This document shows positions 5,700 to 58,599 of a stretch of DNA of 64,000 bases, one piece after another. The translations under genes and the position numbers were made by a program. The stretch's first letter is position 1, and each line of letters starts with the position of its first letter. Source of the DNA: Mobula hypostoma (lineage: Eukaryota); the NCBI RefSeq assembly GCF_963921235.1, contig NC_086097.1, forward strand, positions 145,826,001 to 145,890,000. The letters are read 5' to 3'. The notes under the pieces were generated by a model. It saw only the letters and a list, made by a program, of their open reading frames with translations. It was not told the DNA's origin and did no database searches.

Positions 5700-8330
5700 C
5701 ATGTGGGTAGGAGGAACAAGGTCCAATGACCCCCTGGGTTCACAAATTGGTGAGACCAAAGCTCGAGGCCTAGTGTACAGGGTCCTGTCATTGGCAAGTC
5801 CAGACTTTGAAGCCTATGGGTCAATGCCAAGGACTGAGGATTGAAGGTCAAATCAGAAGTTCAGAAGTTGAGGCCCATTGGCTAGAGCCTAAATCTGCAA
5901 ATCTCTTCAAGTCCACTGGTGAGGATGAAAGTCCAATTTCTGCTAGTCCCACTCTTGAGTCCACTGGAGGCTGGAGGCTGGAGGCTGAAGGCACCCTGTC
6001 TGGGGATTGGATAACTGTGTATCTATTTGGGTGGGAGGGACGTACAGGGCTTATTTTGCTGTTGTTGTTTTGTTGCTTGTTGCTGTGTTATATTCTGCTG
6101 AGCACTTTGGGTGTTGAGTCTGTGCACGGTTACATATCAAGTAAATAAAAGCACGCACACGGGAGATGGCTTTAACTGGTGTATTCACATTGCAGCAAGA
6201 AAGAGAGTGAAGAATGAGCGTGCATAGACAACAGCGCACGTGCAGACAACAGATCAATATGTAGTGCTAAGGGGGGGGGGTCATTTCTCTAAAAAAAAGA
6301 TCCTTACATTACACTTCCTCCCCCTTTAGATTAATATAACATAAAACTGTACATGTACAAAGCATTACATTTTCCTTTCATAAACCTTAATTCCAAATAA
6401 ACATGCTTTCACAAAAACAATCCATAACTAACTTCACAGTTCTAAAGGATCATTTTTTTTGGGTGGTGCTCTGTTTCTTTTGGGATAGCGCCTCTGGACC
6501 TGTGGAGTGGTATCAGGTTTGGAGGGTGTCTTGTCTAAGACAACATTCTTGGTTTCTGGTGTCACTTTGCTGTCTGTGACATCCTCACTGAGGGGTAAGT
6601 CCGGTGACTACAGTGTGTCTGCCTTGTTGGATACGGTTGATTTAGGCGTGTTCTTCGGCTGAGCATCCAGTATCTGATCCACATGACGTCTCCATGTCTC
6701 ATCTCCAACATCCACTGTGTACATCAGTGGTCCAGTTCTTGAAACTATCTGACCAGGTGTCCACTTGTCTTCACAATAATCACGCCCTAGAACTTCCTGT
6801 CCAATCTCGAAGCTCCCTGCTGCTTCACTTGGCAACTGGCTGAACTGTTTATTCTGCACTTCTGGTTTCAGGAGGTCTATGCGAGATCTCAGACTCCTGT
6901 TCATGATCAGCATTGCAGGTGTTTGTTTTGTTGTTGCATGAACAGAGATCTGATACACAAAAAGGAAAATATCCACCTTGTGCAGCAGAGAAATGTCCTC
7001 CTTGTAAATCCATTGTGATCCAGATGACTTCGTGATCTGCTTCAGTTACACTATGTGGTTCTAGGCATGATAATTCACCTTTGTCAGACCCCATGATGTC
7101 TGATTCTGTTTTACATTCAGTAATCTTATGCATTTTCTTAGTTTTGTGTTTGAGACATTTCACTTGGCTGTGTTTTTTGTTGCATTGCACACTTGCTCTA
7201 TGTGACCTTGTTTGTGACACTTTCTGCAGACATTTTCTTTGAACCAACAGTTATTTGCATCATGAGAGAATTTCACACATTGATGATATATTTGCACCAA
7301 TCAGGGACATTTTTTCCCATTTCACATTCTTACCTCCTTTTCTGCAGTTCTGCTGCATCCTTTGCTGCAGTCTCTAAGATATTGCAATGCTCAGTGTCTG
7401 TTCTAAGGTTAGGCCTCTTTTGGACAGTAGCCTCTTTTGAGTGGTTTGACCATGCATGCCACATACAAACCTGTTCCTTAATGGATCGCAATGTCCATCT
7501 CTAAAGTCACAGTACTGGGAAAGTTTGCGCAGTTCTGCAATGTATTCAGAAAGGCTTTGGTCTTTTGACTGGTTCCTTCTGTAAAATCTAAATCTCTCAG
7601 CTATTACCTGTGGTTTAGGACTCAAGTGATTTTGTAAAATAGTATCAATTTAATCGAAGGTCTTGCTTGCTGGCTTTTCAGGGGTTACTATGTTGCGTAA
7701 GATACTGTATATCCTTGCATCCATTAAACTTTCTTTCACTCCTCCACGTTGTTCATGTTACAGTACAGTTCAACCCTCTTGACATATGACTCCCAGCCCT
7801 CATTAGCGCTATCAAATTCATCAACTTTCCCGACTGAAGCCATCACCACGTTATTTTCACTTTAAATTTAGCACATCTTTCGCGGTTATTCAAGTGTTCG
7901 TGATGGCCTTCTCTGTACTGTTTAACTCTCGTTGTTTCGTCCCGTAACTGTCGGTGCTGTTCTCTGACGTTCAGGTTCATACTCGTCACCAATTTTTTGT
8001 GTCGGAGCACAACTACTATTAATTAAATAAAAGCACACACAGGGGAGATGGCTTTAACTGGTGTACTCACAATGCAGCAAGAGAGAGAACAATGCGCATG
8101 TGTAGACAACAGTGCATGCGCAGACAATGGATCAATACGTAGTGCTAAGGGGGGGTGGGGGGAGAGTCATTGCTCTAAAAGAAATTGATCCATACAATAC
8201 AGTGAGCATGCTATGTTGATGCTGAAATGCTGCGGGCTGTCCCCAGCACACTCTCGGGTGTGTTAGTGATAATGAAAAGGACACATTTCACTGTTTGTTT
8301 CGACGTAGGTGTGATAAATTCATTTGAATT
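5700..8330 (+). mobile_element. Non-autonomous retroposon split by a Gypsy insertion (pieces ~5700-6111 and 8202-8330)
   Basis: Sequence is continuous across the insertion (ctgagcact|gtgagcatgctatg). Its 3' tail resembles the tail of the SINE at 57860-58190. Confidence 0.5.
6112..8201 (-). mobile_element. Internally deleted Gypsy (Mag-like) LTR retrotransposon, copy A
   Basis: LTRs 6112-6313 and ~7995-8201; polypurine tract 6314-6328(-); PBS tggtgacgagtat (tRNA-Ser-like) 7979-7991(-); gag IAERFRFYRRNQ..YIAELRKL..RFVCG; integrase C-terminus KWTPGQIV..GPLMYTVDV..WRRHVDQI; degenerate 5-bp TSD ttggg/gtgag. Confidence 0.9.
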
Positions 8331-10551: not shown

Positions 10552-12995
10552 GCTTTGAGATCACTGAGGAGCGCAGAACGCAACTACGCACAGATTGACT
10601 AAGAGGTCCTTAGTCTAGTACGGGGAATAAAGAAGTTCTACCACTGCCTCTATGGACAAAAGTTTACACTAGTGACAGATCACCAACCCCTTGTGTCCAT
10701 TTTCAATCCCAGGAAGGGAATTCCACTGATGACTGCTACCCGATTACAATGTCAAGCACTTTTTCTAGGAGCCCACTCTTAGGACGTAGAGTTCAAGGGT
10801 ACCAAGCAACACAGCAATGCTGAATGCTTGTCATGTCTTCCAATATTGATAACTGAAGAAAAGTCTTCATACTGTGATGCAGCAGAAGATTTTCACACCG
10901 CATTGGTGGTCCAGTTGCCAGTAACAAATTCCAAAATGCAAAGGAGACCAAGGAATGACCCAACATTGTCAAAAGTCTGTGAAATCACGATGCAATTATG
11001 GCTTGCTGATGGCAACCCTATGTTCCCAGAGTTCTCGTTGAAATGAGACCAACTGTTGCTTTGTTAAAGAATGCTGATGTGGAAATCTGATTCATATTTA
11101 AGTATGGATCATTGGAATAATGAAATGGCTAGTTCTATTCCACTTGAAAAAATTACTTATAATTTAAGAGATAATTATGTAACATTCTTGAATATTTGGC
11201 GCCCTTATTTACAAAAGATAGGATGTCATATTTAAGTGCTCCGACAAAGAATTTGGTTACTTGGGGAAAGTAACGAATAATTATACCAAATTTATTTTGA
11301 ATCCCATGGAGCATGTGGAAACCTTCCAATACCCAGGCGGCTCTTTTTTTTTTCTTTCTTTCTTTTAGGTAGGACTATATATGGGGGGGGGAGGGTTAAG
11401 GGGAGGGGGGGTAGATTTTATCTTTTCATGTATTCTTTTGAAAATGTAATAAAAATTATATAAAAAAAAGAATGCTGATGTGTGGATCTTGTGTTGTGGT
11501 TCCCCCTAAACTGTGCATTAGAGTGTTAGAAAATCGGCTTGAAGGATACCAGGGCAGTCAAGGTGAAGAGTCTCGCCTGGAGCTATGTGTGGTGACCGGG
11601 AATAGATTGACAGATTGAAGACTTGGCCAAAAGGTATTTGGGATGCAAAAAGTTCAAAATATACCCCCACAGGCACTGTTACACCAGTGGGAGTGGCCCT
11701 TGTTACCATGGCAAAGTGTGCGTATTGACTTTGCTGGGTCATTCATGGACTCCATATTTCTGATTGCTGTGGATGTTCATTCAAAATGACTAGAGGTTAC
11801 ACCAATGAAGTCAACTACCTCAACAAAGACTGTCTCTGCCCTGAGGACTATCCTCACCAAAAATGGCTTACCAGAACAAATTATGAGTGACAACGGACCA
11901 CAATACACACCAGAAGAATTCCGATTGTTCATGAAGAAAAATGGCATCATACATTTCAAGTCAGCTCCTTACCACCAAGCAATGAATGGGTTAGCTGAAA
12001 GGTTTATCCAAACCTTCAAGAAATCCATTAAAGCAATGGACAAGGAGGATATTTCTCTATAGCATAAGGTGTAAAACTTCCTTTTTGTGTATCAGAACTC
12101 TGTTTATGCAATGACAGATCAGACACTTGCAATGCTGTTCATGAACAGGAATCTGAGATCTCGGATAGACCTCCTGAAACCAGATCTACGGAGGGAAGTG
12201 CAGAATAAACAGTTCAGCCAGTTGCCAAGTGGAGCAGGAAGGAGCTTCGTGATTGGACAGGAAGTTCTAGTCTGTGATTGCCGAGAAGACAAGTGGACAC
12301 CCAGTAGGATAGCTACAAGAACTGGACCACTGATGTACACAGTGGATGTTGGAGATTAGACATGGAGACATTGTGTGGACCAGATACCGGATGCTCAAAC
12401 AAAGTCGACTGCATCAAACAAGACACACACATTACAGTCACCGGACTTACCTCTCAGTGATGATGTAATTGACAGCAACGTTTCACCAGAAACTGAGAAT
12501 GTTGTCTTGTACAAGATACTATGATGTCACTCTACAGGTCCAGAGGCATGACGAGAACGTTATCATAGACAAGCCGACTGCAACACCTGATGCCACTCTA
12601 CAGGTCCCGAGGTGCTATCTTGAAAGAAACCGAGCACCCCCCTCCAAAAGACTGAACCTTTAGAACTGTGAAGTTAGTTATGGACTGTTATTGTGAAAGG
12701 ATGTTTATTTGGATTATAGGTTCATGAAAGGGATATTGAATGTTTTGTACATATACAGTTTTATGTTGCATTAATCTAAAGGGGAAGGAAGTGTAATGTA
12801 TGGATCTATTACTTTTAGAGCAATGACCACCCCCCCCAACACTATGTATTGATCTGTTGTCTGTGCATATGCTGCTGTCTACACATGCATATTGTTCTCT
12901 CTCTCACTGATTACAATGTGAATGCATCAGTTAAGGCCATCTCCCAATGTGCATGGTTTTATTTAATTGATACATAGTTGTGCACAGACACAACA
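10552..12995 (+). mobile_element. 5'-truncated Gypsy (Mag-like) element, copy B: RNase H, integrase, PPT and 3' LTR
   Basis: RNase H AERNYAQI..GIKKF..FTLVTDHQPL; integrase GLPEQIMSDNGPQY..SAPYHQAMNGLAERFIQTFK; PPT 12778-12791; LTR 12792-12995 (TG..CA), homologous to the copy A LTRs. Confidence 0.92.
11082..11466 (+). mobile_element. 5'-truncated L1 LINE inserted in the Gypsy integrase region
   Basis: ORF2 end WKSDSYLSMDHWNNEMASSIPLEKITYNLRDNYVTFLNIWRPYLQKIGCHI*; T-tract and G-tract in the UTR; aataaa plus A-tail; perfect 16-bp TSD AAAGAATGCTGATGTG (11066-11081 / 11467-11482) at a TT|AAAG site. Confidence 0.9.
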
Positions 12996-14526
12996 CTCTC
13001 CACTTCTGATCCCTCTATGACGATTGGTTCATGTTCCCTCATCTTACCCTTCCTGAAGTCCACGATCAGTTCTTTTGTCTTATTGACATTGAGTGCAAGA
13101 TTGTTGCTGCAAACACCACTCAGCTAGCTGGTCTACCTCGCTCCTGTAGGCCCTCTCGTCTCCGTCTGAGATTCTACCAACAATGGCTGCACCATCAGCA
13201 AATTTATAGATGGTATTTGAGATGTATCTAGCCACACAGTCGTGGGTATAGAAGGAGTAATGCAGTGGGCTAAGCATATACCACTGGGGCTGTGAGGCAG
13301 CATTTCTGCTAGTTACACTACTGTGTCAACTCTTATTTATGTATCCTAATGTGAGTTTGGGCGTGGGTGATTGCCGTTTGACTGGTTGCTACAAGAGCCA
13401 TCTGCACCCCCCCCCCCACACACACACACCATGTGCACCTTTGACTCTGAAAGTAAAAGATAAATTAATGCACCCTGACATACAAAAAGCTTTTTTTTAA
13501 AGCATTTTCTCAGGGAGTGTCATTATGCTGCTTATCTCTCCTGAAATACATCCTCCCCTGACTGTGTAACATACATTTCAGAAATACCCATAAGTGGAGC
13601 CACCAGCAGAAAGAACAACCTCAGGAAATGATGACAAGAGTCTTTGCTGATAACAGGAGTTTAAACGCAACATCATTTACTGGCTGAATACATTTCACAC
13701 TGGCAAATATTTCCTGCTACATGTACAGAATTTCAACAGCCTGTTTAGTGCAGGGTGCTGCGCTGTTTGCACTTTTGCTTCTAGAAATTATGGGTTTATG
13801 TGTTCACCTCAGGACTTGAGTTCATAATGATTTCTGTGCTGTGAAGTAGACTGCCTGAAAAGGGGGTGGAAATTGGATAGACACTCAAAATAGAAACATT
13901 TGCAGGATACTGGAGAATATAGCACAGGATGAAAATGATTTCGTTATCTCTTTCACAGAAGCAGCATGGCTAGATAACCTCCTTCTGTTACTTGAGGCTG
14001 TACGATTCTTTTTCAGTCTGGTATTCATAAGTACAGCACCGTGGAGTCATTGACTCACTGGAGGGAGATGTTTTTGCTCAGGTCACCAGAATATGCTGTT
14101 TTAATAGCACCTTATGCCTGGAATGTTGGCTATTTTCTGTTATCAATAAGGGCCTGTCTATCATTTTTACCTCGTTGGTTAGTGTAATGAGGTAAGAAAG
14201 AGAATGCATCTCTGAATTGAGGGTGGGAATGGATCTAGAACATTTGAACTTGTAATGAAGCTGTAACTAAGCCATTCGGCAGTGATTTTAGGAATTATCT
14301 CAAAGTTGCATACTTAGCACCCTAATGTCTTTATTCCAGAGCCACAAAGTTTGCATTCCTAGGGAAAAGTGCCAGGACGATGTTCCCCAAATGAGGGTCA
14401 AGCACTTGGATTACATAGCCAGTGGAAAGATTGCTCATGTTGATGGAGCAAGTTAGTGAAATTACCATATTTGGAAGTTCTTAAAATCTGAATCCCTTGT
14501 GTATGATGTCTGCAGTGGTAGCATCT

Positions 14527-21931: not shown

Positions 21932-22714
21932 TCAAGTTAAGTCAAGTTTATTGTCATTTTGACCATAAGCTGCTGGTACAGTACACAGTAAAAATGAAAC
22001 AACGTTCCTCCAGGACCCTGGTACTACATGAAACAACACAAAACCACACTAGACTATGTGAGACAGCACAAGGTTACATTAGATTACGTAAAACAACATA
22101 AAAACTGCACTAGACTACAGACCTGCACAAAACAGTGCAGGGCAGTACAATAATTAATAAACAAGACAATAGGCACAGTAGAGGACAAATTACAATATAA
22201 TAATAAATGATGTAGATGTCAGTCTAGACTCTGAGTATTGAGGAATCTGATAGCTTGGGGGAAGAAACTGTTGCACAGTCTGGTTGTGAGAGCCTGAATA
22301 CTTCAGTACCTTTTGCCAGATGGCAGGAGGGAGAAGAGTTTGTGTGAGGGGTGTGTGGGGTCCTTCACAATACTGTTAGCTTTGCGGGTGCAGCGTGTGG
22401 TGTAAATGTCTATAATAGCAGGAAGAGAGACCCCGATAATCTTAGCTGACCTCACTATCTGCTGCAGGGTCTTGAGATTCGAGATGGTGCAATTCCTGAA
22501 CCAGGCAGTGATGCAGCTGCTCAGGATGCTCTCAATACATCCTCTGTAGAATGTGGTGAGGATGGGGGAGTGGGGTGGAAGATGGTCTTTTCTCAGCCAT
22601 TGCAGAGAGTAGAGATACTGCTGGGCTTCCTTGGCTATGGAGCTGGTGTTGAGGGACCAGGTGAGATTGTCCGCCAGGTGAACACCAAGATATTTGGTGC
22701 TCTTAACGATCTCA
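21932..22714 (-). mobile_element. Rex1/Babar LINE 3' fragment inserted in CR1
   Basis: caagttaagtcaagtttattg tail; antisense LLPSGKRY-type region; the CR1 resumes at ~22715. Confidence 0.8.
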
Positions 22715-22742
22715 ATATTATGTTGAAGATGTATAAGACATT

Positions 22743-22945
22743 TTGTTGTTCCTTTTCATGCCTTGTGTCACATTGGGCAGGATTTTTGCTGTTTCCGTAG
22801 CATTTGATTGTTCCTTAAGAGGCTGAATTGCTAGCTCCCTGCTAAACTCAGCACGGATGGAAAGCGTCAAGGAGCCAGCTGGATTTGAGCTTGGGACCAG
22901 TCACCTCAAAGTCTGGTGTTGATGCCTCAGCATCACCAGCTGGCC
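22743..22945 (-). mobile_element. tRNA-derived SINE inserted in CR1
   Basis: Minus-strand head ggccagctggtg...agctcaaatcc (degenerate A/B boxes); 13-bp TSD tgtataagacatt / tgtttaagatatt (22730-22742 / 22946-22958). Confidence 0.65.
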
Positions 22946-24066: not shown

Positions 24067-25569
24067 TCGTTTTCTTAGGTGCCAACCACACTTTGGTTGA
24101 ATGTGCCAAAATGCATGGTTATTCTGTGAGCTCAATGATGAATTTTATTAAGCAGGTTAATGCTGTTATTGAGTGGGCTGTGGCAAGCTTCAAGGTTCAT
24201 ATTCAAGTTTAATTGTCATTCAACCATACATGAGTACCCGTGAATACAGCCAAATAAGACTCCAATATTGCATACTCCAATTAAACTAGAAAGGAAAAAT
24301 AAGGGAAAAAGCTATTCAGGTTTGATTTCATTTCTACGTACTTCAGGCTGAATCATTGTGATGATATAAGGAACAAGAAACAGGATTTTTTTTTCTCTTT
24401 CTTTCACATTCCAATTTTACTAGAAAAACGTTTTACCACATTTATACTATTCAAGTATATATATATATTTCACATTTGTATATTCATTTAACATCTAAAA
24501 CCCTTCAATAACTAAGGAAATAAAGCACTCACAATTTGAAAAGCATTCTTACACTTGCTTCTTGTTAAAGTTTACATGTGTCACCTGTGCAAAAAATAGG
24601 TATTTAGATCACATAGCTACTGACTACATCAAAATCAAAAATGCAATTAGCTTCACCTGGAATTCCAATTAGCTACAAGTGGCTGGTGATCTGTATATCG
24701 AGCAACACTACCTTAAACTATTCAGGGCATTGACATAATGTGGCTTGTTCCTGTTTGATCGCCTTCTGTAAACTGGCTCAGTTTTTGATAAAGCCTCCTT
24801 TCTTCTTGCAGCTTTTGCTTGCAAAGCGTGAACAAATAATTTAATCTAATCGGGTCAGCACATGTCAGCATAATTCCAGGAAGGCTCTTAGTGAACAGAC
24901 TTTCAAGCAACCAAATTATTTTTTAATGACTCTGGGCAAACACCACCAGTCAAATCTATGGATGCAGACCTGAATTGTGCTTTATTAAAGGATAGCTTTG
25001 TACAGAGCAACAGGTGCCGGGTTCAACCCCTGAGCTGTGTTTAGTTATGCTGCTTTTATGTTGGTACTGTTTTAATTTGGATTCCAGATGTTTATGTTAT
25101 AAACTTCAGCTGCCTTATCCTGATTGTGAGACCACAATAAAGTTGGGTGCATTGTCAGGTGCTCACAGTAAGCAGCCTGGATTTATGAGCATAAATGCCT
25201 AATGACAAGATGGTAAGCCATTCAGAATCCAGAGTAAAGCAAGACTGTTTTAGTGTGATATATTTCAACTGCATTAATACAGATATAACATTGAACTTTA
25301 GAAGGACGCCTGGCTAGGAAGTAATGCTCACAGATCAGGAAAGTTTCAGCTGGGATTCACTAGTGAGTTTTATGTTTCTGAATCTGTATGTCATTCCAGA
25401 GACTTGAGATGGAATCCATGCTGTAAATGGACCATGGTATCTAAGGTGCCATCTTTTCGGTGACTGTTGATCTTGACAAATGAGTATAAAAACCCAAATG
25501 CACCATTTAAAACAAAAGAGCAAAATCAATCTCTCAACACACATCAAAGTGTTTGCATTTTAAAAATCA

Positions 25570-26910
25570 TTTTCTCTTCCACTCTGCCCTTAAATTTAAT
25601 AGGTCCATTTCGGACAACTCTCTCCCCTTTCTTTATCTTTCTGTCTCTAAGTCTGGAGACAGTCTATATCCTGGTATCATTTATAAACCCATTGACTCTC
25701 ACAGGTATCTGGGCTACACCTCTTCCCACCCTGTTACTTGTTAAAATGCTATTCCTTCTCCCAGATCCTCTGTCTCTGGCGCATATGCTCTCAGGATGAA
25801 ACTTTGTATTCCAAAACAACTGAGATGTTCTCTTTGTTCAAAGAAAAGGGTTTCCATTCCTCCACTATCAATGCTGCCCTCACCCTCATTTTTTCCATTT
25901 TGCTCACATCTGCTCTCACCCCATCCTCCTGTAATCCCACCAGGGATAGGATTCCTCTTGTCTTCACCTACCACCCCACATGCCTCTACATAATACTCCA
26001 TAACTTCCGCATCTCCAATGGGATCCCACCACCAAGCACATCTTCCTCTCCCCCCCCCAACTTTCCGCTTTCCTCAGGGATTGCTCCCTATGCGACTCCC
26101 TTGTCCACTCATCCCTCCCCACTGATCTCCATCCTGTACTTAACAAATTCCACAGCTGCACCTATACTTCCTCCCTCACTACCATTCAGGGTCCTTCCAG
26201 GTGAGACGACACTTCACCTCTGAGTCTATTGGGGTCATCTACACTGTGGTCCCAGTATGGCCTCCTGTATATCGGTGAGACCCAATGTAGATTGGGGCAC
26301 TGCTTTGTCAAACATCTTCATCCATCCGCCGGAAAAAGTGGGATTTCCCAGTGCCCACCCATTTCAATTCCACTTCCCATTTCCATTCCAACATGTCAGT
26401 CCGTGGCCTCCTCTACAGTCACGATGAGGCCACACTCAGGCTGGAGGAGCAGCACCTTATATCCTGTCTAGGTAGCCTCCAACCCGATGGCATAAACATC
26501 AATTTCTCAAACTTCCGGTAATGCACCGCCCCCCCCCCCTTTGCCAATCCCCATTCTTGTTTCCCTCTCATACCTTCTCTTCTTGCAGCCATCACCTGGT
26601 GCTCCCTCCCCTTCCTTTTCTTTTATGGTCTTCTGTCCTCTCCTGTCAGATTCCTGCTTCTCTGGCTCTTTATCTCTTTCCCCAATCAACTTCCCAGCTC
26701 TTTACTTCAACCCCCCTCTCCCTCCCCCACTTTCACCTATCCCCTGTCACCTTGTACTTCTTCTTCCCGTCCTCTCACCTTCTTAGTCTGACTCCTCCAC
26801 CCCCCCTCCAGTCCTGATGAAGGGTCGTGGCCCGAAACATCGATTGTTCACTCTTTTCCATAGATGCTGCCTGGCCTGCGGAGTTGGTCCAGCATTTTGC
26901 GTGTGTTGCC
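25570..26910 (+). mobile_element. Penelope-like element: RT C-terminus, GIY-YIG and terminal repeat with hammerhead motif
   Basis: ISDNSLPFLYLSV..YKPIDSHRYLGYTSSHP; LLYIGETQCRLG (GIY-YIG); terminal repeat 26809-26910. Confidence 0.88.
26809..26846 (+). ncRNA. Minimal type-I hammerhead ribozyme motif
   Basis: cagtc CTGATGA a gggtcgtggccc GAAAC ATC gattg: stem I, catalytic core, stem II, GAAA and a UH cleavage site. Confidence 0.7.
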
Positions 26911-26949
26911 AAAGAATTCTCTCTGGTCTTCTAGCTTCAAAGAACCTAA

Positions 26950-28172
26950 ACTGAAAACCCACATTCCCATTTCCACAGTGATGTGTCCTCAACCTTCTCC
27001 ACCATTGTATTGCAACTAGAAGAGTAACACATCATATTCTGTTTGGGCCGGCAACAGCTCAATGATATGAGCATCGAATTTTCCAGTTTGCCGTAACCCA
27101 CACCTCCTGTGGTCCTTTATTACTCTCACCAATCACCCAGGTTCTCTATCATTCTGGTGGCATTTTCCATCTCCCAGGACTCCCAGACCAACCCCCACTC
27201 CCCACTGCCCCAATACAATGGCAATATCACACTTCCACCTGTGTATTCTCCATCCACATGTGTATCTATGTAGGTTTCACCTTCCTTGGTTCACCTTTCT
27301 TATCCCGTCCCACACCTGATTTAATATGTCTATCATCTCTCCTTACCTGGTTCCACATCATCTAGCAGTCTCTGCATCTACCGTTCCCCCTCCGAGCTCC
27401 ACCTGCCTAATGTCTTTCCCACATCTGTTTCCAGTTTTGACAAAGTTTTGTAGATGTACATGAAGAGTATCCTAACTGGTTACATCATGGCCTGGTATGG
27501 AAATGCCAATGCCCAAGAATGGAAAAGGCTACAGGAAAGCGATGGCTATGCCCAGTCCATCACAGGCAAAGATCTCCCTGCCTTTGAGTACATTTACCTG
27601 GCGTGCAGCATCCATCATCAAGGACCCTATCATCACTATGTTCTCTTCTCAGTTGGGAAAGAGGTACAAAAGCTTTACGGCCCACACCACCGGTTCAGCA
27701 GCAGTTGTTGCCCGAAACCATCAGGTTCCTGAACAGGCATTGATAACTTCAATGACCATTGTTCTGAACTAATTCTATGACCTACAGGCTCGCCTTCAAA
27801 GACTCTTTAGGATTCATGTTCTCAGTGTATTTTTATTTGCATAGTTTGTCTTCTTTTGTACATTGGTTGTTTGTCAGCCTTTGTGTGTTTATGTATATTT
27901 TAACTCTATTGTAGCTCTCATTTTTCCCAGTAAATACCTGTGAGAAAATGAAGCTCGAAGTGGTATGTAGAACATAAATGTATTTCAATAATAAATTTTC
28001 TCTGAATCTTGAACTTTTGAGCCTATTACTAACTCCCCTTCACTTCCATATCATGGATATCTAACCCCCACACACTCACTCCTGACGAAGGGTCTTGATT
28101 TGAGACATTGACCGTCATTTCACCTGCACAGATGCTGCCTGACCTGTTGTATTCTTCCAGCAGTTTGTTTTT
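26950..28172 (+). mobile_element. Older Penelope-like 3' fragment split by a Rex1 insertion
   Basis: Degenerate GIY-YIG end at 26960-27096; degenerate terminal repeat cctgacgaagggtct..gatgctgcctgacctg at 28081-28165. Confidence 0.6.
27435..28020 (+). mobile_element. Rex1/Babar LINE 3' fragment
   Basis: SILTGYIMAWYGNANAQEWKRLQ; AASIIKDP; aataaa..gaacttttga tail. Confidence 0.8.
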
Positions 28173-28730
28173 AAGTAATTATATCAATTGTTGTTTGTGA
28201 GGTCCAGGTATGTATTAACTGCATCTTCCTGTACAGGAGCAAGTGCATTTCAGGAATATTGAATAAACTATGAAGGCTTTAGGATAATAGTATATTGGTG
28301 CAATATTCTGCTCTTTTAATCCTAATTGATCTTGACGTGGTCACTTCCAGCTATATTACTAATTGATCCACTATTGTTGGCCTTAGGTCAAGGAGAAGAA
28401 GAATAGGTTATTCACAAAATTATTAGGCTGATAATTAGTAGTTTGATATTTTCTATGTACTGACAATGAATTCTGTCTACATTGTATGCATTCCTGACAC
28501 CTGGTTAGGAAGATTTACTGAAACATGCAATGATGGAATTAACTTAATATCACCACAGTTGAAGTCATTAGCCAAGCTGATCTCATCATTCCATCTGTAT
28601 GTAATCATTCAGTTCTTGCACTCACACTGTCAGGCTCAGGATTTCTCCCCGTGCCAATTTGATGAGATCAACAGAACTTGCTGTTTAACGAGGATATTTT
28701 TGGAAACTGAGCAGCCCCAGAAAGGGTGCA

Positions 28731-28925: not shown

Positions 28926-29499
28926 AAATGATCAAGGCAATAGAAATTTCTCCACTCTCAACCCAAAATCTGAGGACTAAAACCAGAAACTGCATGAAAT
29001 ACTCAGCATGTCAGGCTACATCTGTGGAGGCAGACACAGAGTTAAAATTCCAGGTAAATGACCTGTGCTCTAAATTTAGGAAAACTAGAAATCAAGCATA
29101 TATTAAGGTGGAAAGAAGTGGGAGGGCGTGGAAAGAAAACAGGAATGTTTGTAACAGAATGAAAATCAAGGAAGTGTGACTGACGTAAGCAATGTTGATT
29201 GTAGCAGACAGTGGATCATGGAAGCACCTCTGTCTCTCACATACAATTTCCCTAGGTAAGTTGTAAGTTGAAGAACACAAGCAGTACTTTCTAAGCAACA
29301 TTCACAAAAAGCTGGAGGAACTCAGCAGGCCAGACAGTATCTATGGAAAAGAGTATAGTCGACATTTTGAGCTCAGTGTTTTTCTAATTATTTTCCATCA
29401 GAACTTTTGAGATAAATAAGCCTTCAGCACTCGCTCTCGGGCATTCTGCCATGACTTGTGTCATGAAATTTATTTTGGTGTTCACTTTATTAGAAACAT

Positions 29500-31720: not shown

Positions 31721-32612
31721 AGACATAGACACAGTACAGGCCCTTCGGCCCACAATGTTGTGCCGACCCTCAAACCCTGCCTCCCATATAAGCCCCCACC
31801 TTAAATTCCTCCGTATACCTGTCTAGTAGTCTCTTAAACTTCACTAGTGTATCTGCCTCCACCACTGACTCAGGCAGTGCATTCCACGCATGAACCACTC
31901 TCTGAGTAAAAAACCTTCCTCTAATATCCCCCTTGAACTTCCCACCCCTTACCTTAAAGCCATGTCCTCTTGAATTGAGCAGTGGTGCCCTGGGGAAGAG
32001 GCGCTGGCTATCCACTCTATCTGTTCCTCTTATTATCTTGTACACCTCTATCATGTCTCCTCTCATCCTCCTTCTCTCCAAAGAGTAAAGCCCTAGCTCC
32101 CTTAATCTCTGATCATAATGCATACTCTCTAAACCAGGCAGCATCCTGGTAAATCTCCTCTGTACCCTTTCCAATGCTTCCATATCCTTCCTATAGTGAG
32201 GCGACCAGAACTGGACACAGTGCTCCAAGTGTGGCCTAACCAGAGTTTTATAGAGATGCATCATTACATTGCGACTCTTACTCTATCCCTCAACTTATGA
32301 AAGCTAACACCCCATAAGCTTTCTTAACTACCCTATCCACCTGTGAGGCAACTTTCAGGGATCTGTGGACATGTACCCCAAGATCCCTCTGCTCCTCCAC
32401 ACTACCAAGTATCCTGCCATTTACTTTGTACTCTGCCTTGGAGTTTGTCCTTCCAAAGTGTACCACCTCACACTTCTCCGGGTTGAAATCCATCTGCCAC
32501 TTCTCAGCCCACTTCTGCATCCTATCAATGTCTCTCTGCAATCTTTGACAATCCTCTGCACTATCTACAACACCACCAACCCTTGTGTTGTCTGCAAACT
32601 TGCCAACCCACC
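31721..32612 (-). mobile_element. Young CR1 LINE 3' fragment inserted in an older CR1 (31600-31720 and 32620-32890)
   Basis: Near-intact ORFs 31770..32264 and 32290..32634; (agacat)n tail; cttctat duplicated at 31714-31720 / 32613-32619. Confidence 0.92.
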
Positions 32613-33292
32613 CTTCTATGGTTTGGAGATTCAATGTATCCTTGGAAATTTAAGTACTGCAGCTTAAGAATACTCTCCTCATGTTCAACCACGCGACCAA
32701 TCTTTATATCATTTAAGAATTTACCAACCTTGCCTTCTATAGTGACATGCAAATCATTAAAGTAAATAAACAACACCGCTGGCCACTGAAAACCCTCCAC
32801 CATCATCGCCTGCCTCTTATTGCCATGCCGACAGTGGATATGATTTGCCAACTTGCCATGCAACCCAGGGGCTCTAACCTTTTGGACAAGTTCTTCCCCC
32901 CCCCCCCCACCCCTTCCACTACAACTTAAAACATGTTCAATTTTCATTTTTCTCAGTTACAATATCAAATATTTGACCAGAAAAATTTGTTCTATTCTTG
33001 TCTCCAATGATTCTGCTCAATGTGCTAGTTCTCACTTTCTTAATTTATGATTCACATCTCCAGCTTCTGCAATGTTTTTTTAGCTGTTTCACTTTGAGGC
33101 AGACATTGTTGGATAAGAGACCAACATGCCAATAGTTTAAATTGGCAATCCTGTTTGTTGTTGATTTTCAGTTCATAGAGTGTTGATCAATCATGCTAAT
33201 CTCTTTCTAGCAATTCATCGAGGAACTGGACAAGCAAATTCTTCACTTGTAAACATCATTGGTGTTGATAGTTCTAAAGCTGCCTGTTCCAT

Positions 33293-33553
33293 GTATCACA
33301 CACAAAATGCTTGAGGGACTCAGCAGGCCAGGCAGCAACTATGGAAAAGAGTAAACAGTTGGCGTTTCGGGCCGAGACCCTTCATCAGGACTGTCGATAT
33401 TTTGGGCTGAGACCCTTCGTGAGTCCTGATGAAGGGTCTCAGCCTGAAACATCGAGTGCTTACTCTTTTCCATAGATGCCTCCTGGCCTGCTGAGTTCTC
33501 CAGCATTTTGTGTGTGTTGCTTGGATTCCAGCATTGGCAGATTTTCCCTCGTT
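33293..33553. mobile_element. Fold-back insertion of the Penelope terminal repeat with three hammerhead-type motifs
   Basis: Inverted arms ~33297-33393 and 33421-33516; 8-bp TSD TGTTCCAT (33285-33292 / 33554-33561). Confidence 0.85.
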
Positions 33554-33740: not shown

Positions 33741-35609
33741 TGTGTGTTTGTAGGTCACTCTCACTGCAACTGGGGTGTGTAATAATCACTTACCCCGTCT
33801 GTATGTGACTGAGTGGGTTCTCTCCCCGGACCATTGCACACGGTCTGTTTTTGTGCTTGTCTTAATAAAGACGTCAGTTGAGATAAACGTGCTTTTCTTG
33901 TCTGTCATCATGGACCGAATGCTCCTCACATTGGTGTCAGGAGCAGGATTAGGAATTGACGGTGAGATTGAAGAGCTACGACGTCAGATGGAGCGCCTGA
34001 AAACCCGCAGAATAAGTCAAGGGACTGAGCAGTGTGCCTCCCCTGCATCCCAGGGCTGGGATCCCAACTATGGGAAGCTGACCCAAAGGGAGAACCTGGG
34101 AACCGAGCCGAGCATCATGCCTTCCCAGGGAACCTCGATGGGATGGGCATACCCAGGCTCCCCAACCCGGGGGACATGGTGGAGCGCATCACCCACCTCC
34201 CTCATGGACTGTTCTGGGGAACCCAAGATACAGCAGCCATGGGAGTACAGTTAACATGGCAGGCACCACCGACACCACCAGAGCGAGAGGAATAACAACA
34301 GGCCTCAGCAGTTAACGGCACAGGGTTCACCCTGAAGCTCCCCAGATACACTGGTACCTGCTGCTTGCAGCCTTACGTTGCTCAAGTTAAACTTGCTGTA
34401 CAGCACAGTGAGATGGCGGTGCACCATGCTCTGGCACTGGCTATGGTCACTGGCGACCATGTGTGAATGAGAGCAAAGACGTGGCCGTGCATGGCATTGG
34501 GGATAAACACGGCTGTGGCTAGCCGACATCTGGGACGGCTGCATCCTTGGCCTGGACCTGCTATCCCGCTTGGGGGCCTGTGGGATGTGCTGGGGGCAAC
34601 TGAGGCTGTGGCTCTCCGGCAGGACAGCTCCAGAAAGTGGATCCGGTGGGGGCAGTGACAATGACTACTGGGGTCACAGCAGGCTGCTGCAGTGTGGCAC
34701 ACCCCGCAGTGGCCCAATGCAACACAGCAGAACCAGGGGCGAGGGGTATCGGAGGCGATCGGCGGCAGGGCAGACTCCCCCACCAATGAGCAGCAGCTAT
34801 CGAGTGAGCAGGTGAGCGATCCAGTGCTGGCCCAGGTGAGGTAGCGTGAGATAGCGACTGGAGTGGGCAGAGGTCTCCGCCCTGGATCCATACACCAAAG
34901 GCCTATACTCTCAGTGGGGCACACTGGAGATACGAGGCAGGTTGCTGTTCTTGTGCTGGCTGTTTTCTGGCAATGACAGACATCTGCTGCAGCTGGTGGT
35001 CCCCCCGGGGGCTCCACTCCACGGTGCTGCGGTCGGTGCAAGGGCTGGTGGGGGCCAGCCATTTTGGGTTCACAAAGACGTTGAAGGCTTCTATTAGCCT
35101 GGGTACTGGCAGGACGTGGAGCTGTTCGTGCACTGCTATGACGCTTGTCCCAGAAGGAACTGGGCCACCAGTTGAGGGCACCAATGCAGCAGTACCTGGC
35201 GGGGGCACCAGTAAGGATCTACTGCCCCTCCCGGAAGATGGGACTACCCCCCAAGATTGGAAGCTGCTGGAAAGGGCTGGGAAAGGTGCCTGACCCTATC
35301 TCTGATATGGTATACCAGGTATAGTTGTCTGCGTAGTGGAAGGCAGTCGTGCTGCACTGGGACTGGCTGGCACCGTATTGGCCCTTGGCCACCACTGACC
35401 CAGCGAGACTGAAGGAAGGAAGTGTGTTTGTGGATCACTCTGACTGTAACCGGGCAGTGTAATAATTCCCTCCCCCAGCTGTATGTGACTGAGTGGGTTC
35501 TCTCCCTGGGCCATAGCGCCCAGACTGTTTTACGCTTGTTGCAATAAGGAAGTCAGTTGAGATACATGAGCTTTTCTCATTGGTCATCGTGGACTGAATG
35601 CTCGCCACA
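33741..35609 (+). mobile_element. 1.9-kb non-autonomous Gypsy LTR element
   Basis: LTRs 33741-33930 and 35423-35609 (TG..CA); PBS tggtgtcaggagcaggat (tRNA-Leu-like) 33932-33949; PPT gaaggaaggaag; TSD ctgct/atgct; remnants of gag, protease and integrase. Confidence 0.9.
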
Positions 35610-36004
35610 ATGCTATAATTGCTAACTATCAGGCACAATTTTCTGTGTTTCATAACTTTGCTTAACTTTGTTCAATTTTGTTTAGATACAACTTTCGAAG
35701 GAACTCCATAGTATTATGAATGTTATCTCAACATTCAAGGACCACTTTGTCAAGGGTGTTCTGACATATAAGCTTGGTCTGCTTAAAATTTGGCAACTTT
35801 GCTTGGATTCATGCTGTATAACTTCATTAATCCTAACAAAGTCAAATTAATTACTGATATCTGAAGGCAAATTGTAGAAATCGGGAAACCTAAGGTATAT
35901 GGTAAATAAAGCTTCAATTTGTGGAAAAAGGGGCAGAAGTTTGAAAGAATTGCTTGTGTGCCTCAAATCTTTTAATGAATGATATCATTCTGTAATAAAA
36001 ACCA

Positions 36005-36929: not shown

Positions 36930-39102
36930 GGACCTGAATGAATACACCATAGTTGTCAGAGACTTCATTAAAACAATTGTAGATGAGTTCGTCCCCTCAA
37001 AATCATTCAGAGTTCCCCTACCAGAAGCCCTGGATGAACCATGAGATCTGGAGGCTGCTGAGGGCCAGATAAGAGGTATTCAAATCTGATGACCAAGAAA
37101 GATACAAGAGCTTCAGGTACAATCTCTTGAAAGCTAGCTCACAGGTGAAGTGGAAATACCAGACTAAACTTGAATCAACAAAGGATGCTCGACAGATGTG
37201 GCAGGGATTGAATACTATTACCTCTCATAAAGTAAAATCAATATACACATTGCTAAGGGTCTCACCTAGACTGTACGTACCAGCTGTGTGGTGAGAAAAG
37301 CACAAAAGCACCTCTTTCGCCTCAGATGACTAAAGAAGAAGTTTGGCATAAGTACCCAAATCCTCAGGACCTTCTACGGAGGCACCATCGAGATTATCCT
37401 GACTGACTGTGTCACCACATGATAAGGGAACTCTCCTACCCTCAATCACAGAGCACTACAGAGAGTGGTATGGACATCTGTGGATGTGAACTGTCCTCTG
37501 TTTAGGGCATTTACTTCAGCAGGTACATAAAAAGGGCCTGGAGGATCACCAGGGACTCCAGCCACCCCAACCACCAACTGCTTTGGCTGCTTCAGTTTGG
37601 CAAACGGTAGCGCGGCATTAAGGCCAGGACCAACAGGCCCTGGAACAGCTTCTTTGACCAGGCCATCAGATTGATCAAAACACATTGATCTGATTGCATA
37701 TCTGACTGTACATTGTATCTGACTGTACATACATGTATACAATCCTAGTGTTTGGGCAATATCCCCCCACATTTCCCTTCCTTATTGCTTGCAATAGTGA
37801 TGGAGATGCAACATAAAGATTTTTACTCCCTCATGTTGTGAGATGGGTGTAAGAAATAAAATTTTAATTCTAATTCTAAAAACAATCAATTGACATAGGC
37901 AACACCAAGGCTTTGCTTCCGGATGAGCTCAATGCCTTCTATGCTCGCTTTGACCATCAAAATATGGAGGAACCATCATGAACTCCCGCAGCCCCTGATG
38001 ATCCTGTATTTTCAGCCTCTGAGGCTGATGTGCAAGCAGTATTCAGGAGGGTGAACCCACAAAAAGCATTTGGCCCAGACCCAGATGGAGTACATGGTGA
38101 AGTATGTAAGGTCTGTGCTGATCAACTGGCTGGAGAGTTCACCGAAATCTTTACTCTTTTGCTTCAGCAGTCTGAGGTACCCACCTACTTCAAACAGACT
38201 TCACTTGTGCCAGTGCCCAAGAAGAAAATGGTAACCTACATCAATGACTTTCGTCTAGAAGCAATTACATCCACAGCAATGACACGTTTCGAGAGGTTGG
38301 TGATGAAACATATCAACTCCTGTGCGAGAGGTGAGCAATAGGCCCACAGCGGATGCCATCTCATTGGGTCTTCACTCAACCCTGGAACTTCTGAACGACA
38401 AAGATGCTTACATCAGGAAATTCTTTATCAACTACAGCTCACCATTCAATGCCAGCATCCCCTTAAAACTAATCAATAAGCTTCAAGCTCCTTGTGCAAT
38501 CGGATGCTCGATTTCCTCATTTGGAGACCCCAGTCAATTCGGATTGACAACAACATCTCCTCCACAATCTCCATCAGGTGCACCTCAAGGCTGTGTGCTT
38601 AGTCACCTGCTCTACTCGCTTGACATTTAGGACTGTGTACCCAAGCACAGCTCTGATGTCATAATCACTTTTCTAGATGATACCACTGTCATAAACCAAA
38701 TCAGCAGTGGTGATGAATCTGCATATAGGAGGAAGGTTGAAAATCTGGCTGAGTGCTGCCACAACAATGAACTCTTACTCAATGTCAGCAAGACCAAGGG
38801 GCTGATTATTCACTTCAGGTGGAGGAAACCAGAGGTCCACGAGCCAGTCCTCATTGAAGGATCAGAAGTGGAGAAGGGTCAGCAACTTCAGACTCCCCAG
38901 TGCCTGTTCTGGGCAATTATAAAGAAAGCACGGCAGCAGCTTCCCTTCCTTAGGAGTTTGCAAAGATTCAGTATGACATCTAAAACGGAGACAGATTGTG
39001 GTGGAGAGTATATTGTCTGGTTGTATCACAGCCTGGTATGGAAACACCAATGCCCTTGAATGGAAACGCCTGCAAAAAGTAGTGGTTACGGCCCAGTCCA
39101 TC
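36930..39102 (+). mobile_element. Rex1/Babar LINE RT region, with a second Rex1 3' fragment (~37245-37877) inserted
   Basis: VNPQKAFGPD..CADQLAG..PTYFKQ..VPVPKK; DAISLGLH..GAPQGCVLSHLLYSL. The inner element ends aataaa..(aattct)n. Confidence 0.88.
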
Positions 39103-41790
39103 AGAATCAGGATCAGGTTTATTATCACCAGCATTTGACGTGAAATTTGTTAACTTAGCAGCAGCAGTTCAATGCAATACATAATATAGAGACAGAAAAA
39201 AAATTTTAAAAAATAAGTAAGTAAATCAATTACAGTATGCATATATTGAATAGATTTTAAAAAGTGCAAAAAACAGGAATACTGTATATTTCAGAAAGTG
39301 AGGTAGTGTCCAAAGGTTCAATGTCCATTTAGGAATCAGATGGCAGAGGGGAAGAAGCTGTTCCTGAATCACTGAGTGTGTGCCTTCAGGCTTCTGTACC
39401 TCCTACCTGATGGTAACAGTGAGAAAAGGACATGCCCTGGGTGCTGGAGGTCCTTAATAATGGACGCTTCCTGAAGATGTCCTGGGTACTTTGTAGGCTA
39501 GTACCCAAGATGGAGCTGACTAGATTTACAACCCTCTGCAACTTCTTTTGCTCTGCAGCAAAAGTTTTTATAAATATATAAAGCGGAAGAGGGTGGCTAA
39601 AGTCAACGTAGGTCCCTTGGAAGACGAGAAGGGGAAATTGATATTGGGTGATAAGGAAATGGCTGAGGCATTGAACAACTATTTTGTGTCGGTCTTCACG
39701 GTGGAGGACATGTCTAATATGCCAAAGAAAGATGTTATTCCCTGAATGGGAGGTGAGGACCTCGATAAAATCACTGTCACTAAAGAGATAGTGATGAGCA
39801 AGCTAGAAGGCCTGAAGGTAGATAAGTCCCCTGGTCCTGATTGGATGCATCACAGGGTGTTGAAGGAATTGGTGGAGGTTATAGTAGTTGCATTGGTAAT
39901 CATCTAACAAAACTCTCTAGACTCTGGTCAGGTCCTGGCGGGCTGGAAGACAGCAAATGTCACGCCACTTTTTATAAAAGGATGTAGGCAAAAGACTGGC
40001 AACTATAGGCCAGTTAATTTAATATCTGTAGTCGGGAAAATGCTTGAAGCTGTCATTAAGGAAGAAATAGCAAAACATTTAGAAAGGAGTGGTTCCATTA
40101 GATAGATGCAGCGTAGATTCAGAAAGGGCAGGTCTTATTTGACAAACTTACTGGAGTTCTTTGAGGACATAACGAGTGCAGTGGATGGAGGGGAACAGGT
40201 GGATGTCGTATACTTGGATTTCCAGAAGGCATTCGATAAGGTGCCGCACAAGAGACTTATAAATAAGATATGGATGCATGGAGTCAGAGGAAGTGTATTG
40301 GCATGGATAGTGGATTGGTTAACCAATAGAAGGCAGAAAGTTGGTATAACTGGGTATTTCTCTAGTTGGCAGTCAGTGGTGAGTGGGGTGCTGCAGGGGT
40401 CGGTGCTGAGCCCGCAGCTGTTTACCATTTACATTGATGACTTGGAAGAGGGGACTGAGTATAGTGTAGCAAAATTTGCTGATGATGCTAAACTGAGTGG
40501 AAAAGCAAATTGTACAGAGGATGTGGAAAGTCTGCAGAGGGATATAGATAGGTTAAGTGAGTGGGCCAAGGTCTGGCAGATGGAATACAACATTGGTAGA
40601 TGCGAGATCATCCACTTTGGAAGGAATAATAGAAGAGCAGATTATTATTTAAATGGTGAAGGATTACAGCATGCTGTTGTGCATAGGGATTTGGGAGTGC
40701 TTGTGCATGAATCTCAAAATGTTGGCTTGCAGGTACAACAGGTTATTAAGAAGGCCAATGGAATGTTGGCTTTCATTGCTAGAGGGATTGAATTCAAGAG
40801 CAGGGAAGTCATGCTGAAACTATACAGGGTACTGGTGAGGTTGCACCTGGAGTACTGTGTGCAGTTCTGGTCTCCATACTTGAGGAAGGATATACTAGCT
40901 TTGCAGGCAGTACAGATGAGGTTCACCAGGTTAATTCCAGGGACGAAGGGGTTAACCTGTGAGGAGAATTGAGTCACCTGGGACTATACTCTCTGGAGTT
41001 CAGAAGAATGAGAGGGGTTCTTATAGAAACTTACAACATTTTGAAAGGGATAGATAAGATAGAAGTAGGAAAGTTGTTTCCATTGGTAGGTGAGACTAGA
41101 ACTAGGGGACATTGCCTCAAGATTCAGGGGGGAAGATTTAGGATGGAGATGAGGAGAAACTGTTTTTCCCAGGGAGTACTGAATCTGTGGAATTCTCTGC
41201 CCAGGGAAGCAGTTGAGGCTTCTTCACTAAATATATTTAAGAAACAGTTAGACAGGTTTTTATTTAGTAAGGGAATTAAGGGTTATGGGAAAAAGGCAGG
41301 TAGATGGAGCTGAGTTTACAGACAGATCAGCCATGATCTTATTGAATGGCGGGGCAGTCTCGATGGGCTGGATGGCCTACTCCTGCAACTATTTCTTATG
41401 TTCTTATGTTCTTTCGGTCCTGTGCAATAGCTCCCCCATTCCAGACTGTGATGTCAGGATGCTCTCCACACTACATCTACAGAAATTTTTGAGTGTATTT
41501 GTTGACATGCCAAAACTCTTCAAACTCATAATGAAGTATAGCCGCTGTCTTGCTTTCTTTATAACTACCTCTGTATGTTGGGACCAGGTTAGATACTGAG
41601 AGATCTTGACACCCAGGAACTTGAAGCTGCTCACTCTCTCCATTTTTGATCCTTCTATGAGGATTGGTATGTGTTCCTTCGTCTTACCCTTCCTGAAGTC
41701 CACGATCAGCTCTTTCGTCTTACTGACGTTGAGTGCCAGCTTGTTGCTGCAGCACCATTCCACTAGTTGGCATATCTCACTCCTGTACGG
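39103..41790 (-). mobile_element. Rex1/Babar LINE split by CR1 (39103-39549 and 41409-41790)
   Basis: agaatcaggatcaggtttattatc tail; ORF 41404..41763(-) LALNVSKTKELIVDFRK..FKFLGV; ttcttt at both junctions. Confidence 0.88.
39557..41408 (+). mobile_element. Young 5'-truncated CR1 LINE with an open RT domain
   Basis: ORF 40106..40972 (288 aa) YLDFQKAFDKVPH..SGVLQGSVL..AKFADDAKL; (ttcttatg)n tail. Confidence 0.95.
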
Positions 41791-45054: not shown

Positions 45055-47093
45055 CAGTGATTCTCCAAAGAGATGGTTACATGCACTTAGGTGGGGTTAG
45101 GGAAAATAGAGGTTGTCAGGGGGGCATTCAGGATTCTTGGGAGGGGGTGGTAAGTGGCACCCTAACTTGAGGCACTAAACCTGACCAATTGTTAGTAGAG
45201 CAGGCACTTACAAAAAAATAAGGATGAGGCCCTGGAACACAGGGAGAACCATATCTCTGCAAGTGGTGAGCACTCATCACAATGCTCCTGAAACTCAGCA
45301 ATCTCATCTGACCTTACCAACCAAACTGACATTATTGGAGATGCATGAATTTAGCACCCAGGGTGCCCAACATCTCCCCTTGACTTGCGGCACAGAACGA
45401 GTTCATGCAATTTAACAGTTGGTAAGTCAAGTACACCTTCTCAACTTTCTCTACAGATCTATGGAAAACAGGTCACTCAATGATATGGCGCTGATCAGAA
45501 CCAAACGATGAAGCCTTGAATTCTAACGCTGCTAAGAAACAGAAAGTGCATCAATACAATGGTACGTACTTGGAATATGGTTTTATTCAATTCCCATCAT
45601 AGTGCCCCATGTGCCTTATTTGTAATACTGTACTGTCTAATGAAGCCTTGAAGCCATCAAGATTGCAGGAACACTTTCGTAGAAGACACCCTGAAAATGT
45701 TACTTATGGTATTATTCAGTTCCAGAAGCATATAAAGTGTTGTACACTCGAGTCATTTGCCAAGAAAACTAAAAATAACCTTGATCGTGGTCTCATTGCT
45801 TCTTATAACATTTTCAAAATGATAGGAAAGTGTGGAAAATCTCATACAATTGGTGAAAGATTAATATTGCCTGCTGTATCAGATGTGCTCACCACTGTTC
45901 TCAAAATGGATACCTGTATTTTAAAATCAATTCCTCTGAGTAATAATTCTGTGGCTTGTCATATTGATGAAATGAGTGAAGATGCTGAGTATCAACTGAA
46001 CACAGAACTACAAAAAACAAAATTTAGGATACAACTGGATGAATCAATGAGACTTTGCTAATGACATATGTACGGTTTATCAAAAATGGAAAGTTTATGA
46101 AGAGATTCTCTTTAGTAAAAAGTTAAAAACAAATATCAAAGGAGTATCAATCTACGATGAGCTCAAAATGTATATTGAGGATAAAAGTATTCTGATTAGG
46201 AACATGATTTATTGTGCAACAGATAGAGCATCATGGGTTTAGAGGCATTTATGAAAAAAGAAATTCCAAGTTTGTTTGCAATCCATTGTGTAATTCATCA
46301 TCAACATCTCGCAGCCAAAAACCTCAGCCAGCCAGCGACTTTTTTCAAGCATGGCTCTTGTGATATCTGCTATCAACAAAAATAAAGCTCATCCATTAAA
46401 TAGCAGAATATTTCACCAGTTACACCAAAATAATGATGAAGAGTTTGAACGCTTGCTTCTTCACACTGAAGTGGATTGGCTGTCAAAAGGCTGCTATTTA
46501 AAACGTTTCTTTGATCTTTTTGACACTCTGGTTGAAATTTTGCTCAAAGTCAACAAGAGCTGGGGAACCAAGACTGAACTTCTACATGGAGATGTGGCAT
46601 ACCTAGCCGATCTGTAAAATAAACATTCTGTCATTTCCTGGTCTTTAGAGAAGAGCCAAACTGCTCTTCATTGCATTTCCATCCTCCTACCTTATTGAAA
46701 GAGGCTTCAGTGTAGTAAACCATATACTCACAAAAAAACAGAAACCAGTTGGACATTGTTACGCATGGGGACTTAAAGCTTTTGTTCTCACAACTTGAAC
46801 CAGATATTTCAACTCTTCCTAAAACCATCAAGCTCAGGAATCACATTGATATCGAAACTGTTGTACAGCGCACAGGTACTGTGTAAGCTTGGTTTAAAGA
46901 CAAATAAGAATTTAAAGCAGAATCGTTTTTCTCATGTTAGCATTTGGTAGACATGTTTTTACACTATGGCGATGCCAGAAAGTATATTGTGCCTCAGAGG
47001 GGCATTGGCAAGTATGAATGTGCTTTAAGAGTCATTGGCAAGTATGAAAGAGATTAAGGGGAGCGTTGGGCTAAAAAAGGTTGGAAAACACTG
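45055..47093 (+). mobile_element. Decayed hAT transposon, Buster/Charlie (ZBED5/SCAND3-like) group
   Basis: TIR cagtgattctccaa / ttggaaaacactg; 8-bp TSD gcttagca / gtttagca (central TA); BED finger CLICNTVLSNEALKPSRLQEH; IQLDES, IHCVIH, LLLHTEVDWLSKG; stops and frameshifts. Confidence 0.92.
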
Positions 47094-58357: not shown

Positions 58358-58599
58358 AACTCAGACTGTTGATGACATTCTCATGTACCTTGGCCCTTCT
58401 TGGTTGGAGAGTTTGTGGATTTGGAGGTGCTGTTGGAGTAACTGTAGCTACTGTGCTCTGGTAGGGGTGAATAAATGCTTAGGTTAGGTTGGGACAGTGC
58501 ACCAAGCCATTAAGTTGCTTTGTCCTGATTGGTGTTGAGCTTCTTGGCAGTTGTTCAAGCTCTACTCACGCAGACATCAGGCAATATCCTCAAGAGCTT

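Follow-up and report, generated by a model that had tools for sequence, protein, structure and literature searches.

The 64,000-nt stretch of Mobula hypostoma DNA analysed here (the window) contains a repeat of about 100 nt, several copies of which begin with a motif resembling a hammerhead ribozyme. Is this repeat a short ribozyme-headed element of its own or the end of a Penelope-like element (PLE), and is its head a genuine hammerhead? Minimal hammerheads in the pseudo-LTRs (pLTRs) of PLEs were described by Cervera and De la Pena in 2014 (PMC4209133), who also reported solitary motifs, scattered by the thousand, from coelacanth and Xenopus, and no cartilaginous fish appears among the entries of Table S1 and Fig. 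S3 of that work. Our literature search found no paper on hammerhead Penelope elements of elasmobranchs or on this ray family. We conclude that the repeat is very probably the 3' end of a PLE headed by a minimal hammerhead, and that its solitary copies are likely heavily 5'-truncated PLE insertions and not a separate SINE.

Copies of the repeat in the window

A total of 14 copies and one extra core fragment were detected by nhmmer with a profile built from five window copies (Table 1), and the same profile gave no match in the reversed window. The original prediction, made from the sequence alone, had counted about twelve occurrences and named nine orphan coordinates, all of which are real. A recognisable hammerhead head is kept by eight of the 14 copies. 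Six are without all or most of the core, as had been noticed for several of them, and their starts range from inside stem II to the last 36 nt. A diverged variant of the repeat end, with CAC for CAT before AGATG and a T-rich end, is seen at 28976-29035, 52822-52897 and 28078-28178; its letters suggest at least two PLE families differing in age.

Other repeats are also present. A 190-nt direct repeat (33742-33933 and 35422-35612, 79% alike) is placed around a GC-rich stretch, and the pair has the look of a decayed LTR element. An inverted pair of about 900 nt spans 6111-7045 and 12040-12996, and the minus-strand frame at 6608-7045 is similar to the end part of an LTR-retrotransposon integrase. 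The pieces at 45603-46617 are similar to a hAT/SCAND3-type transposase, and those at 40106-41313, 31770-32649, 22303-22755 and 37982-39059 are fragments of decayed LINE reverse transcriptases from at least two families. One LINE piece is interrupted by the repeat stub at 57195 and another splits the PLE remnant R2.

Table 1. Positions of the repeat copies, hammerhead motif and PLE remnants in the window.
Feature	Position	Strand	Evidence or remark
R1: end of reverse transcriptase (RT), linker and GIY-YIG; 5'-truncated, with frameshifts and stops	25535-26545	+	tblastn E 1e-46 to P0007; profile
Minimal type-I hammerhead motif	26809-26846	+	sequence; per-copy scoring
Terminal repeat unit (3' pseudo-LTR end) of R1	26809-26909	+	nhmmer; contig depth
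R2 ORF end, more diverged than R1	26958-27101	+	local alignment to R1, R3 and R4 ORF ends
R2 terminal repeat, hammerhead decayed	28078-28178	+	
Orphan end of the divergent variant, ribozyme head missing	28976-29035	-	
Orphan, 5'-truncated, starting inside stem II	29295-29380	-	7-bp direct repeat at both ends
Head-to-head inverted pair	33293-33553		arms 33293-33393 (-) and 33421-33520 (+)
Extra core fragment	33390-33423	-	nhmmer
R3: GIY-YIG piece (49972-50249), 3' UTR, decayed repeat (50508-50611)	49972-50611	+	tblastn E 1e-13; profile
Orphan with decayed head	51285-51362	-	
Orphan starting near GAAA, divergent variant	52822-52897	-	
36-nt orphan end within another repeat	57195-57230	-	
Orphan with decayed head and tail	58588-58721	-	
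R4: RT core, linker and GIY-YIG (59477-60854), 3' UTR, repeat (61078-61178)	59477-61178	+	tblastn E 1e-70; profile
154-nt fold-back insertion, two core-less ends head to head	63464-63617		
nhmmer copies	26810, 28079, 33422, 50509, 61079, 63526	+	nhmmer
nhmmer copies	28987, 29295, 33294, 51285, 52833, 57195, 58623, 63464	-	nhmmer

Penelope-like element remnants

Four of the 14 copies end remnants of PLE ORFs encoding RT and GIY-YIG endonuclease, according to tblastn, a protein profile and local alignment. These are the copies at 26809, 28081, 50505 and 61078, for which exactly this position had been claimed. The ORF end of R2 was not detected by the protein profile at 26958-27101; its local alignments to each of R1, R3 and R4 have scores reached by none of 1000 shuffles. 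It is separated from the repeat at 28078 by an unrelated repeat insert of about 580 nt (about 27436-28015). In R1, R3 and R4 the distance from the ORF stop to the hammerhead downstream is 253-293 nt.

The linker between RT and endonuclease in R4 translates as C-x4-C-x2-C, and the same is found in nearly all long relatives. Because this linker marks the Neptune and Nematis clades (PMC8557442), the element would belong to one of the two; Neptune is the likely assignment, judged from a linker that Nematis shares. Among the proteins matched by the RT fragment at 59581-60105, those of ray and shark come first (Mobula, Hypanus, 55% identity); matches to full-length proteins of about 900 aa were obtained as well. 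The best protein matches include a 931-aa protein with RT and GIY-YIG. Both RVT_1 and GIY-YIG are carried by P0011, and the window remnants align along P0011 and P0007. Pfam found no domain on the three window fragments searched, which are short and frameshifted. No full-length PLE is present in the window or among 80 related loci, and no full-length ray ORF was retrieved.

About 20 nt beyond the cleavage site (26863-26909 and the tail), a pyrimidine run ends in AG and precedes an ATG; by its letters it could be a candidate splice acceptor or ORF start. In other PLEs the part beyond the cleavage site encodes the start of the ORF; such a peptide was absent from the 29 proteins screened.

Structure and decay of the hammerhead motif

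The features of the head were read from the copy at 26809. Stem I is formed by 26809-13 and 26842-46, CUGAUGA occupies 26814-20 and is followed by one unpaired A, stem II consists of 4 bp (26822-25/26830-33), GAAA lies at 26834-37, and the predicted cleavage site is after C 26841. On per-copy scoring this copy has 12/12 core letters, 5/5 stem I pairs and 4/4 stem II pairs, with ACAT in place of the palindrome ACGT (A at 26839). The 33421 copy also keeps 12/12 core letters, including the NUH site. The core, the stems and the position behind a PLE ORF all agree with the predicted minimal type-I hammerhead of a PLE.

No window copy is undamaged, as had been stated. The palindrome at 15.2-16.2 is kept in two of the eight head-bearing copies, core, stems and palindrome occur together in none of the eight, and the window contains no exact core match. 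The majority among the eight heads has A at position 16.2 (6/8) and T at 11.1 (5/8). The motif put forward as a consensus across copies is therefore not the window majority but the CpG-restored form, which is backed by public contigs (see below).

Rfam covariance models run against the window gave 10 matches up to E 5, none of them to a hammerhead, and the folding z-scores of single copies were not significant. As a monomer, the CpG-restored head pairs its core with CGUC in the computed fold (-12.7 kcal/mol). Such a fold, with the core paired to the region of the cleavage triplet, would suit a motif whose default state is inactive. The best computed dimer (-33.7, versus -19.9 for the double-hammerhead form) is not the active form. 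Nearest-neighbour energies leave out the tertiary contacts of the core.

Family form, abundance and CpG decay

Public contigs were aligned on 26560-27010 at 80% likeness, with 40,576 from run X1 and 35,407 from run X9, which carries another organism label. In X1 most of the depth supports T at 26827 (92%) and, at 26844, C (91%), the latter turning the G-U of stem I into G-C; these family letters repair the 26809 copy. The consensus of the loose contig ends before 26850 in X1 (428 contigs, agreement 0.53) has intact GAAACGUC and stem I, and continues intact from stem II over GAAAC and GUC into the second strand of stem I. The read consensus also supports the CUGANGA and GAAA core with its NUH site. 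The loose-end consensus of X9 and X20 shows G12>A at the corresponding place, and the ACGT palindrome is present in those of X1 and X9. The presence of the restored motif in public contigs indicates that the motif first proposed is likely the family form.

The repeat is very abundant, as had been claimed: the X1 depth reaches 860,188 at 26816-26831 versus 13.6 in the flank, a sign of abundance and not a copy number. Depth is at single-copy level beyond 26911 and drops sharply upstream of 26800, where the window copy is divergent.

The motif contains four CpGs, located at 11.1/G12, in the palindrome and at the cleavage site; ordinary methylation decay would therefore be expected to inactivate most copies. 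Among the eight heads, 23/64 CpG cells are changed, all of them C>T or G>A, versus 32/231 other cells (Fisher p 2e-4), as counted against a CpG-restored reference that was selected once the read consensus had been seen. The CpG o/e of the window is 0.26. These patterns make it likely that CpG decay silences most genomic copies, all window copies included. At 15.2/16.2 of the palindrome CA exceeds TG by 6:0, an excess that could instead point to a subfamily in which the palindrome was absent from the outset.

Related PLE loci and covariation

Relatives were drawn from metagenomes, where 80 PLE loci were collected; viral contigs contained no PLE relatives. A descriptor that requires the stems recovered eight motifs from the 80 loci and none from the reversed sequence. 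With a looser core pattern, a core was found 113-160 nt behind the ORF end in 7/18 relatives with enough sequence there, a pattern that also matched control strands at 5/18 loci at scattered positions. In relative L004, two hammerheads in inverted orientation, at 1087 (-) and 3582 (+), flank a 5'-truncated ORF, so that an inverted copy precedes the ORF, the same kind of arrangement as in the inverted pairs of the window.

The covariation that the original prediction had proposed to check was assessed on eight aligned motifs, two from the window and six from relatives. Each of the five stem I pairs varies in both of its partners, 92% of cells pair (0/500 shuffles), and over both stems 6/8 pairs change on both sides among relatives, counts that are biased towards structure since 6/8 motifs were picked by a descriptor demanding three stem I pairs. 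The related PLEs have entirely different stem I sequences and identical catalytic letters. Despite the stem-filter bias, the covariation in this alignment agrees with the published pattern of minimal hammerheads.

Orphan copies and insertion signatures

Ten of the 14 copies have no adjoining ORF. What these orphans have in common is confined to the PLE 3' end, and their start points vary inside that end; three (33393, 33421/51360 and 58717) begin within a few bases of stem I. We found no common upstream sequence among them, no tRNA gene, no A/B box in six orphan flanks and no Rfam head. With such variable starts, the idea of a separate ribozyme-headed SINE-like repeat is not supported. The window copies display neither an RNA-gene-derived head nor A/B boxes nor a fixed 5' end, by which a SINE is recognised.

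PLE insertions are described as having 5' truncation, head-to-head inverted ends, a one-sided tail of 30-40 bp and duplications of 8-12 bp (PMC8557442, PMC3846280). The inverted pairs, one-sided tails and direct repeats at 33293-33553 and 63464-63617 correspond to this published signature of endonuclease-bearing (EN+) PLEs. The first pair has a 33-nt tail on its right arm only, and the second a 31-nt extension on the right only. In search zones picked after viewing the sequence, the first is bounded by an 8-bp direct repeat (33285/33554; 11/600 random zone pairs), the second by a perfect 12-bp direct repeat (63453/63621; 0/600), and 29295-29380 by a weak 7-bp one (35/600 reach 7 bp); a convincing direct repeat is absent at five of the eight insertions tested (R1, R3, R4, 57195 and 58717). 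The tail at 33521 matches that at 58588-58622 (0/500 shuffles, 45 pairs tested), and the extension at 63586 matches neither of these two tails above shuffles. The tail pattern gave no match in viral and metagenome contigs. Both ends of the pair at 63464-63617 are core-less, which shows that an insertion can lack the ribozyme.

A second damaged core is located at 33390-33428 (-), 35 nt before the core at 33393 and thus with a 35-nt period, and has variants in common with the 33421 arm. A similar back-joint, from 26840 to 26808, occurs in one public contig. The window contains no whole-unit tandem array and no tandem complete hammerheads. Rfam matches to miRNA precursors at 63484-63566 are below the gathering score; a miRNA precursor was rejected there, the matches being spurious and reflecting the fold-back insertion.

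Comparison with known systems

Like the metazoan PLE hammerheads of PMC4209133, the motif is of type I with CUGANGA and an unpaired base, G10.1-C11.1, GAAA, a palindromic 15.2-16.2, no stem III, a 5-bp stem I and T-rich flanks, and it occurs both at truncated PLEs, within their 3' repeat, and alone at dispersed sites. Its short 4-bp stem II is shared with the Acropora Neptune motif (Fig. S3 of the same paper), in contrast to the 7 bp of the bony-fish Xena and Poseidon motifs reported there. The local density of 14 ends in 64 kb is high compared with the elements in that account. Neptune-type EN+ PLEs as described in PMC8557442 and PMC3846280 share RT, a CX2-5CxxC linker and C-terminal GIY-YIG, as well as 5' truncation, inverted head-to-head ends, an optional tail of 30-40 bp and direct repeats of 8-12 bp, whereas the window holds only decayed remnants.

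PAc, a Poseidon element of Anolis, likewise has a pLTR hammerhead, two alternative 3' ends that define a tail, and an uncut genomic hammerhead; it belongs to another clade, and its ORF starts inside the hammerhead (PMC11167929). The non-LTR retrozymes of bioRxiv 10.64898/2026.07.22.740005, which reports pLTR-related ones in one chondrichthyan, resemble our repeat in the type I hammerhead, the short non-coding unit related to PLE pLTRs and the dispersed monomers. They are defined there by tandem units, at least two of them with a complete hammerhead, whereas the window has only one damaged 35-nt core duplication. By every feature tested at the sequence level, the head of the repeat is a PLE minimal hammerhead.

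Origin of the repeat and rival explanations

The excess of copies of about 100 nt would be accounted for by a non-autonomous short element, SINE-like or retrozyme-like, which arose from the PLE end, is transcribed alone and is copied in trans by PLE protein. We regard this as unlikely. Ten orphans, three of them starting next to stem I, are what it would produce, yet their starts are spread between stem I and the last 36 nt, and neither a common upstream head nor a tRNA or A/B box accompanies them. The sharp fall of depth upstream of 26800 could mark the border of such a unit, though the window copy is divergent there. The core duplication at 33390-33428, the similar joint in one public contig and the pLTR-related tandem retrozymes in one chondrichthyan (bioRxiv 10.64898/2026.07.22.740005) point towards tandem copies, but whole-unit arrays are absent in the window, and inverted pairs with a tail are expected from truncated PLE insertions (PMC8557442, PMC3846280). 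In an extended form of the idea, the ray PLE end has become a self-standing mini-element: ribozyme-headed or fold-back units of 100-260 nt would give rise to transcripts that are copied again in trans, and 35-nt head-to-tail core duplications, for example 33390-33428, would act as ready-made dimeric hammerheads from which retrozyme arrays are born. This is equally doubtful; if it were true, the family would rank among the most abundant ribozyme families in a vertebrate.

That the motif is a non-catalytic leftover, or a protein-binding or terminal signal merely resembling a hammerhead, is very improbable. Against it, the catalytic letters stay invariant among PLEs with wholly different stem I sequences; in its favour, the window holds no intact copy. 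The pairing of the restored monomer core to CGUC and a best dimer other than the double-hammerhead form would suit an inert motif, as would the Anolis ribozyme mutants without effect on insertion in vitro (PMC11167929) and the reported failure of 8/9 Xenopus dimers to cleave; against this, motifs of the same type are described to cleave weakly as dimers or with protein (PMC4209133, PMC11167929).

If the repeat is the PLE 3' end, its copies could have arisen as follows. The GIY-YIG domain of the element would nick DNA, and its RT would copy RNA by target-primed reverse transcription. For PAc, two RT start sites, uncut RNA as template and protein-assisted cleavage are described (PMC11167929); two nearby start points in the ray element, as that account leads us to infer, may yield ends with or without the tail of 31-35 nt. 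Copying would mostly stop or fold back early, leaving stubs of 36-130 nt and head-to-head pairs between target-site duplications. Since the copies retain both flanks of the cleavage site, the template RNA appears to have been uncut there when copied. Two motifs are reported to pair through the palindrome and to cleave weakly (PMC4209133, PMC6765202). The ray motif is predicted to need a dimer partner or the help of protein for cutting. In a live ray element, two hammerheads may similarly build a stem III by pairing their ACGU palindromes, with cleavage after GUC, and this dimer cleavage probably trims multi-unit transcripts. After insertion, the four CpGs of the motif would decay, so that most genomic copies are likely silenced.

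Implications

Dispersed minimal hammerheads of PLEs were already described in 2014 (PMC4209133), and the window copies, decayed as they are, are likely inactive; such dead copies do not make the role of the hammerhead for PLEs more testable. The known link between ribozymes and retrotransposons is extended here to a very abundant family of cartilaginous fish. For genome annotation, these repeats of about 100 nt are best read as PLE ends. CpG decay provides a simple explanation for the broken appearance of most vertebrate copies. Moreover, truncation, inversion and tail use in PLEs could be studied statistically on the many natural copies of this family.
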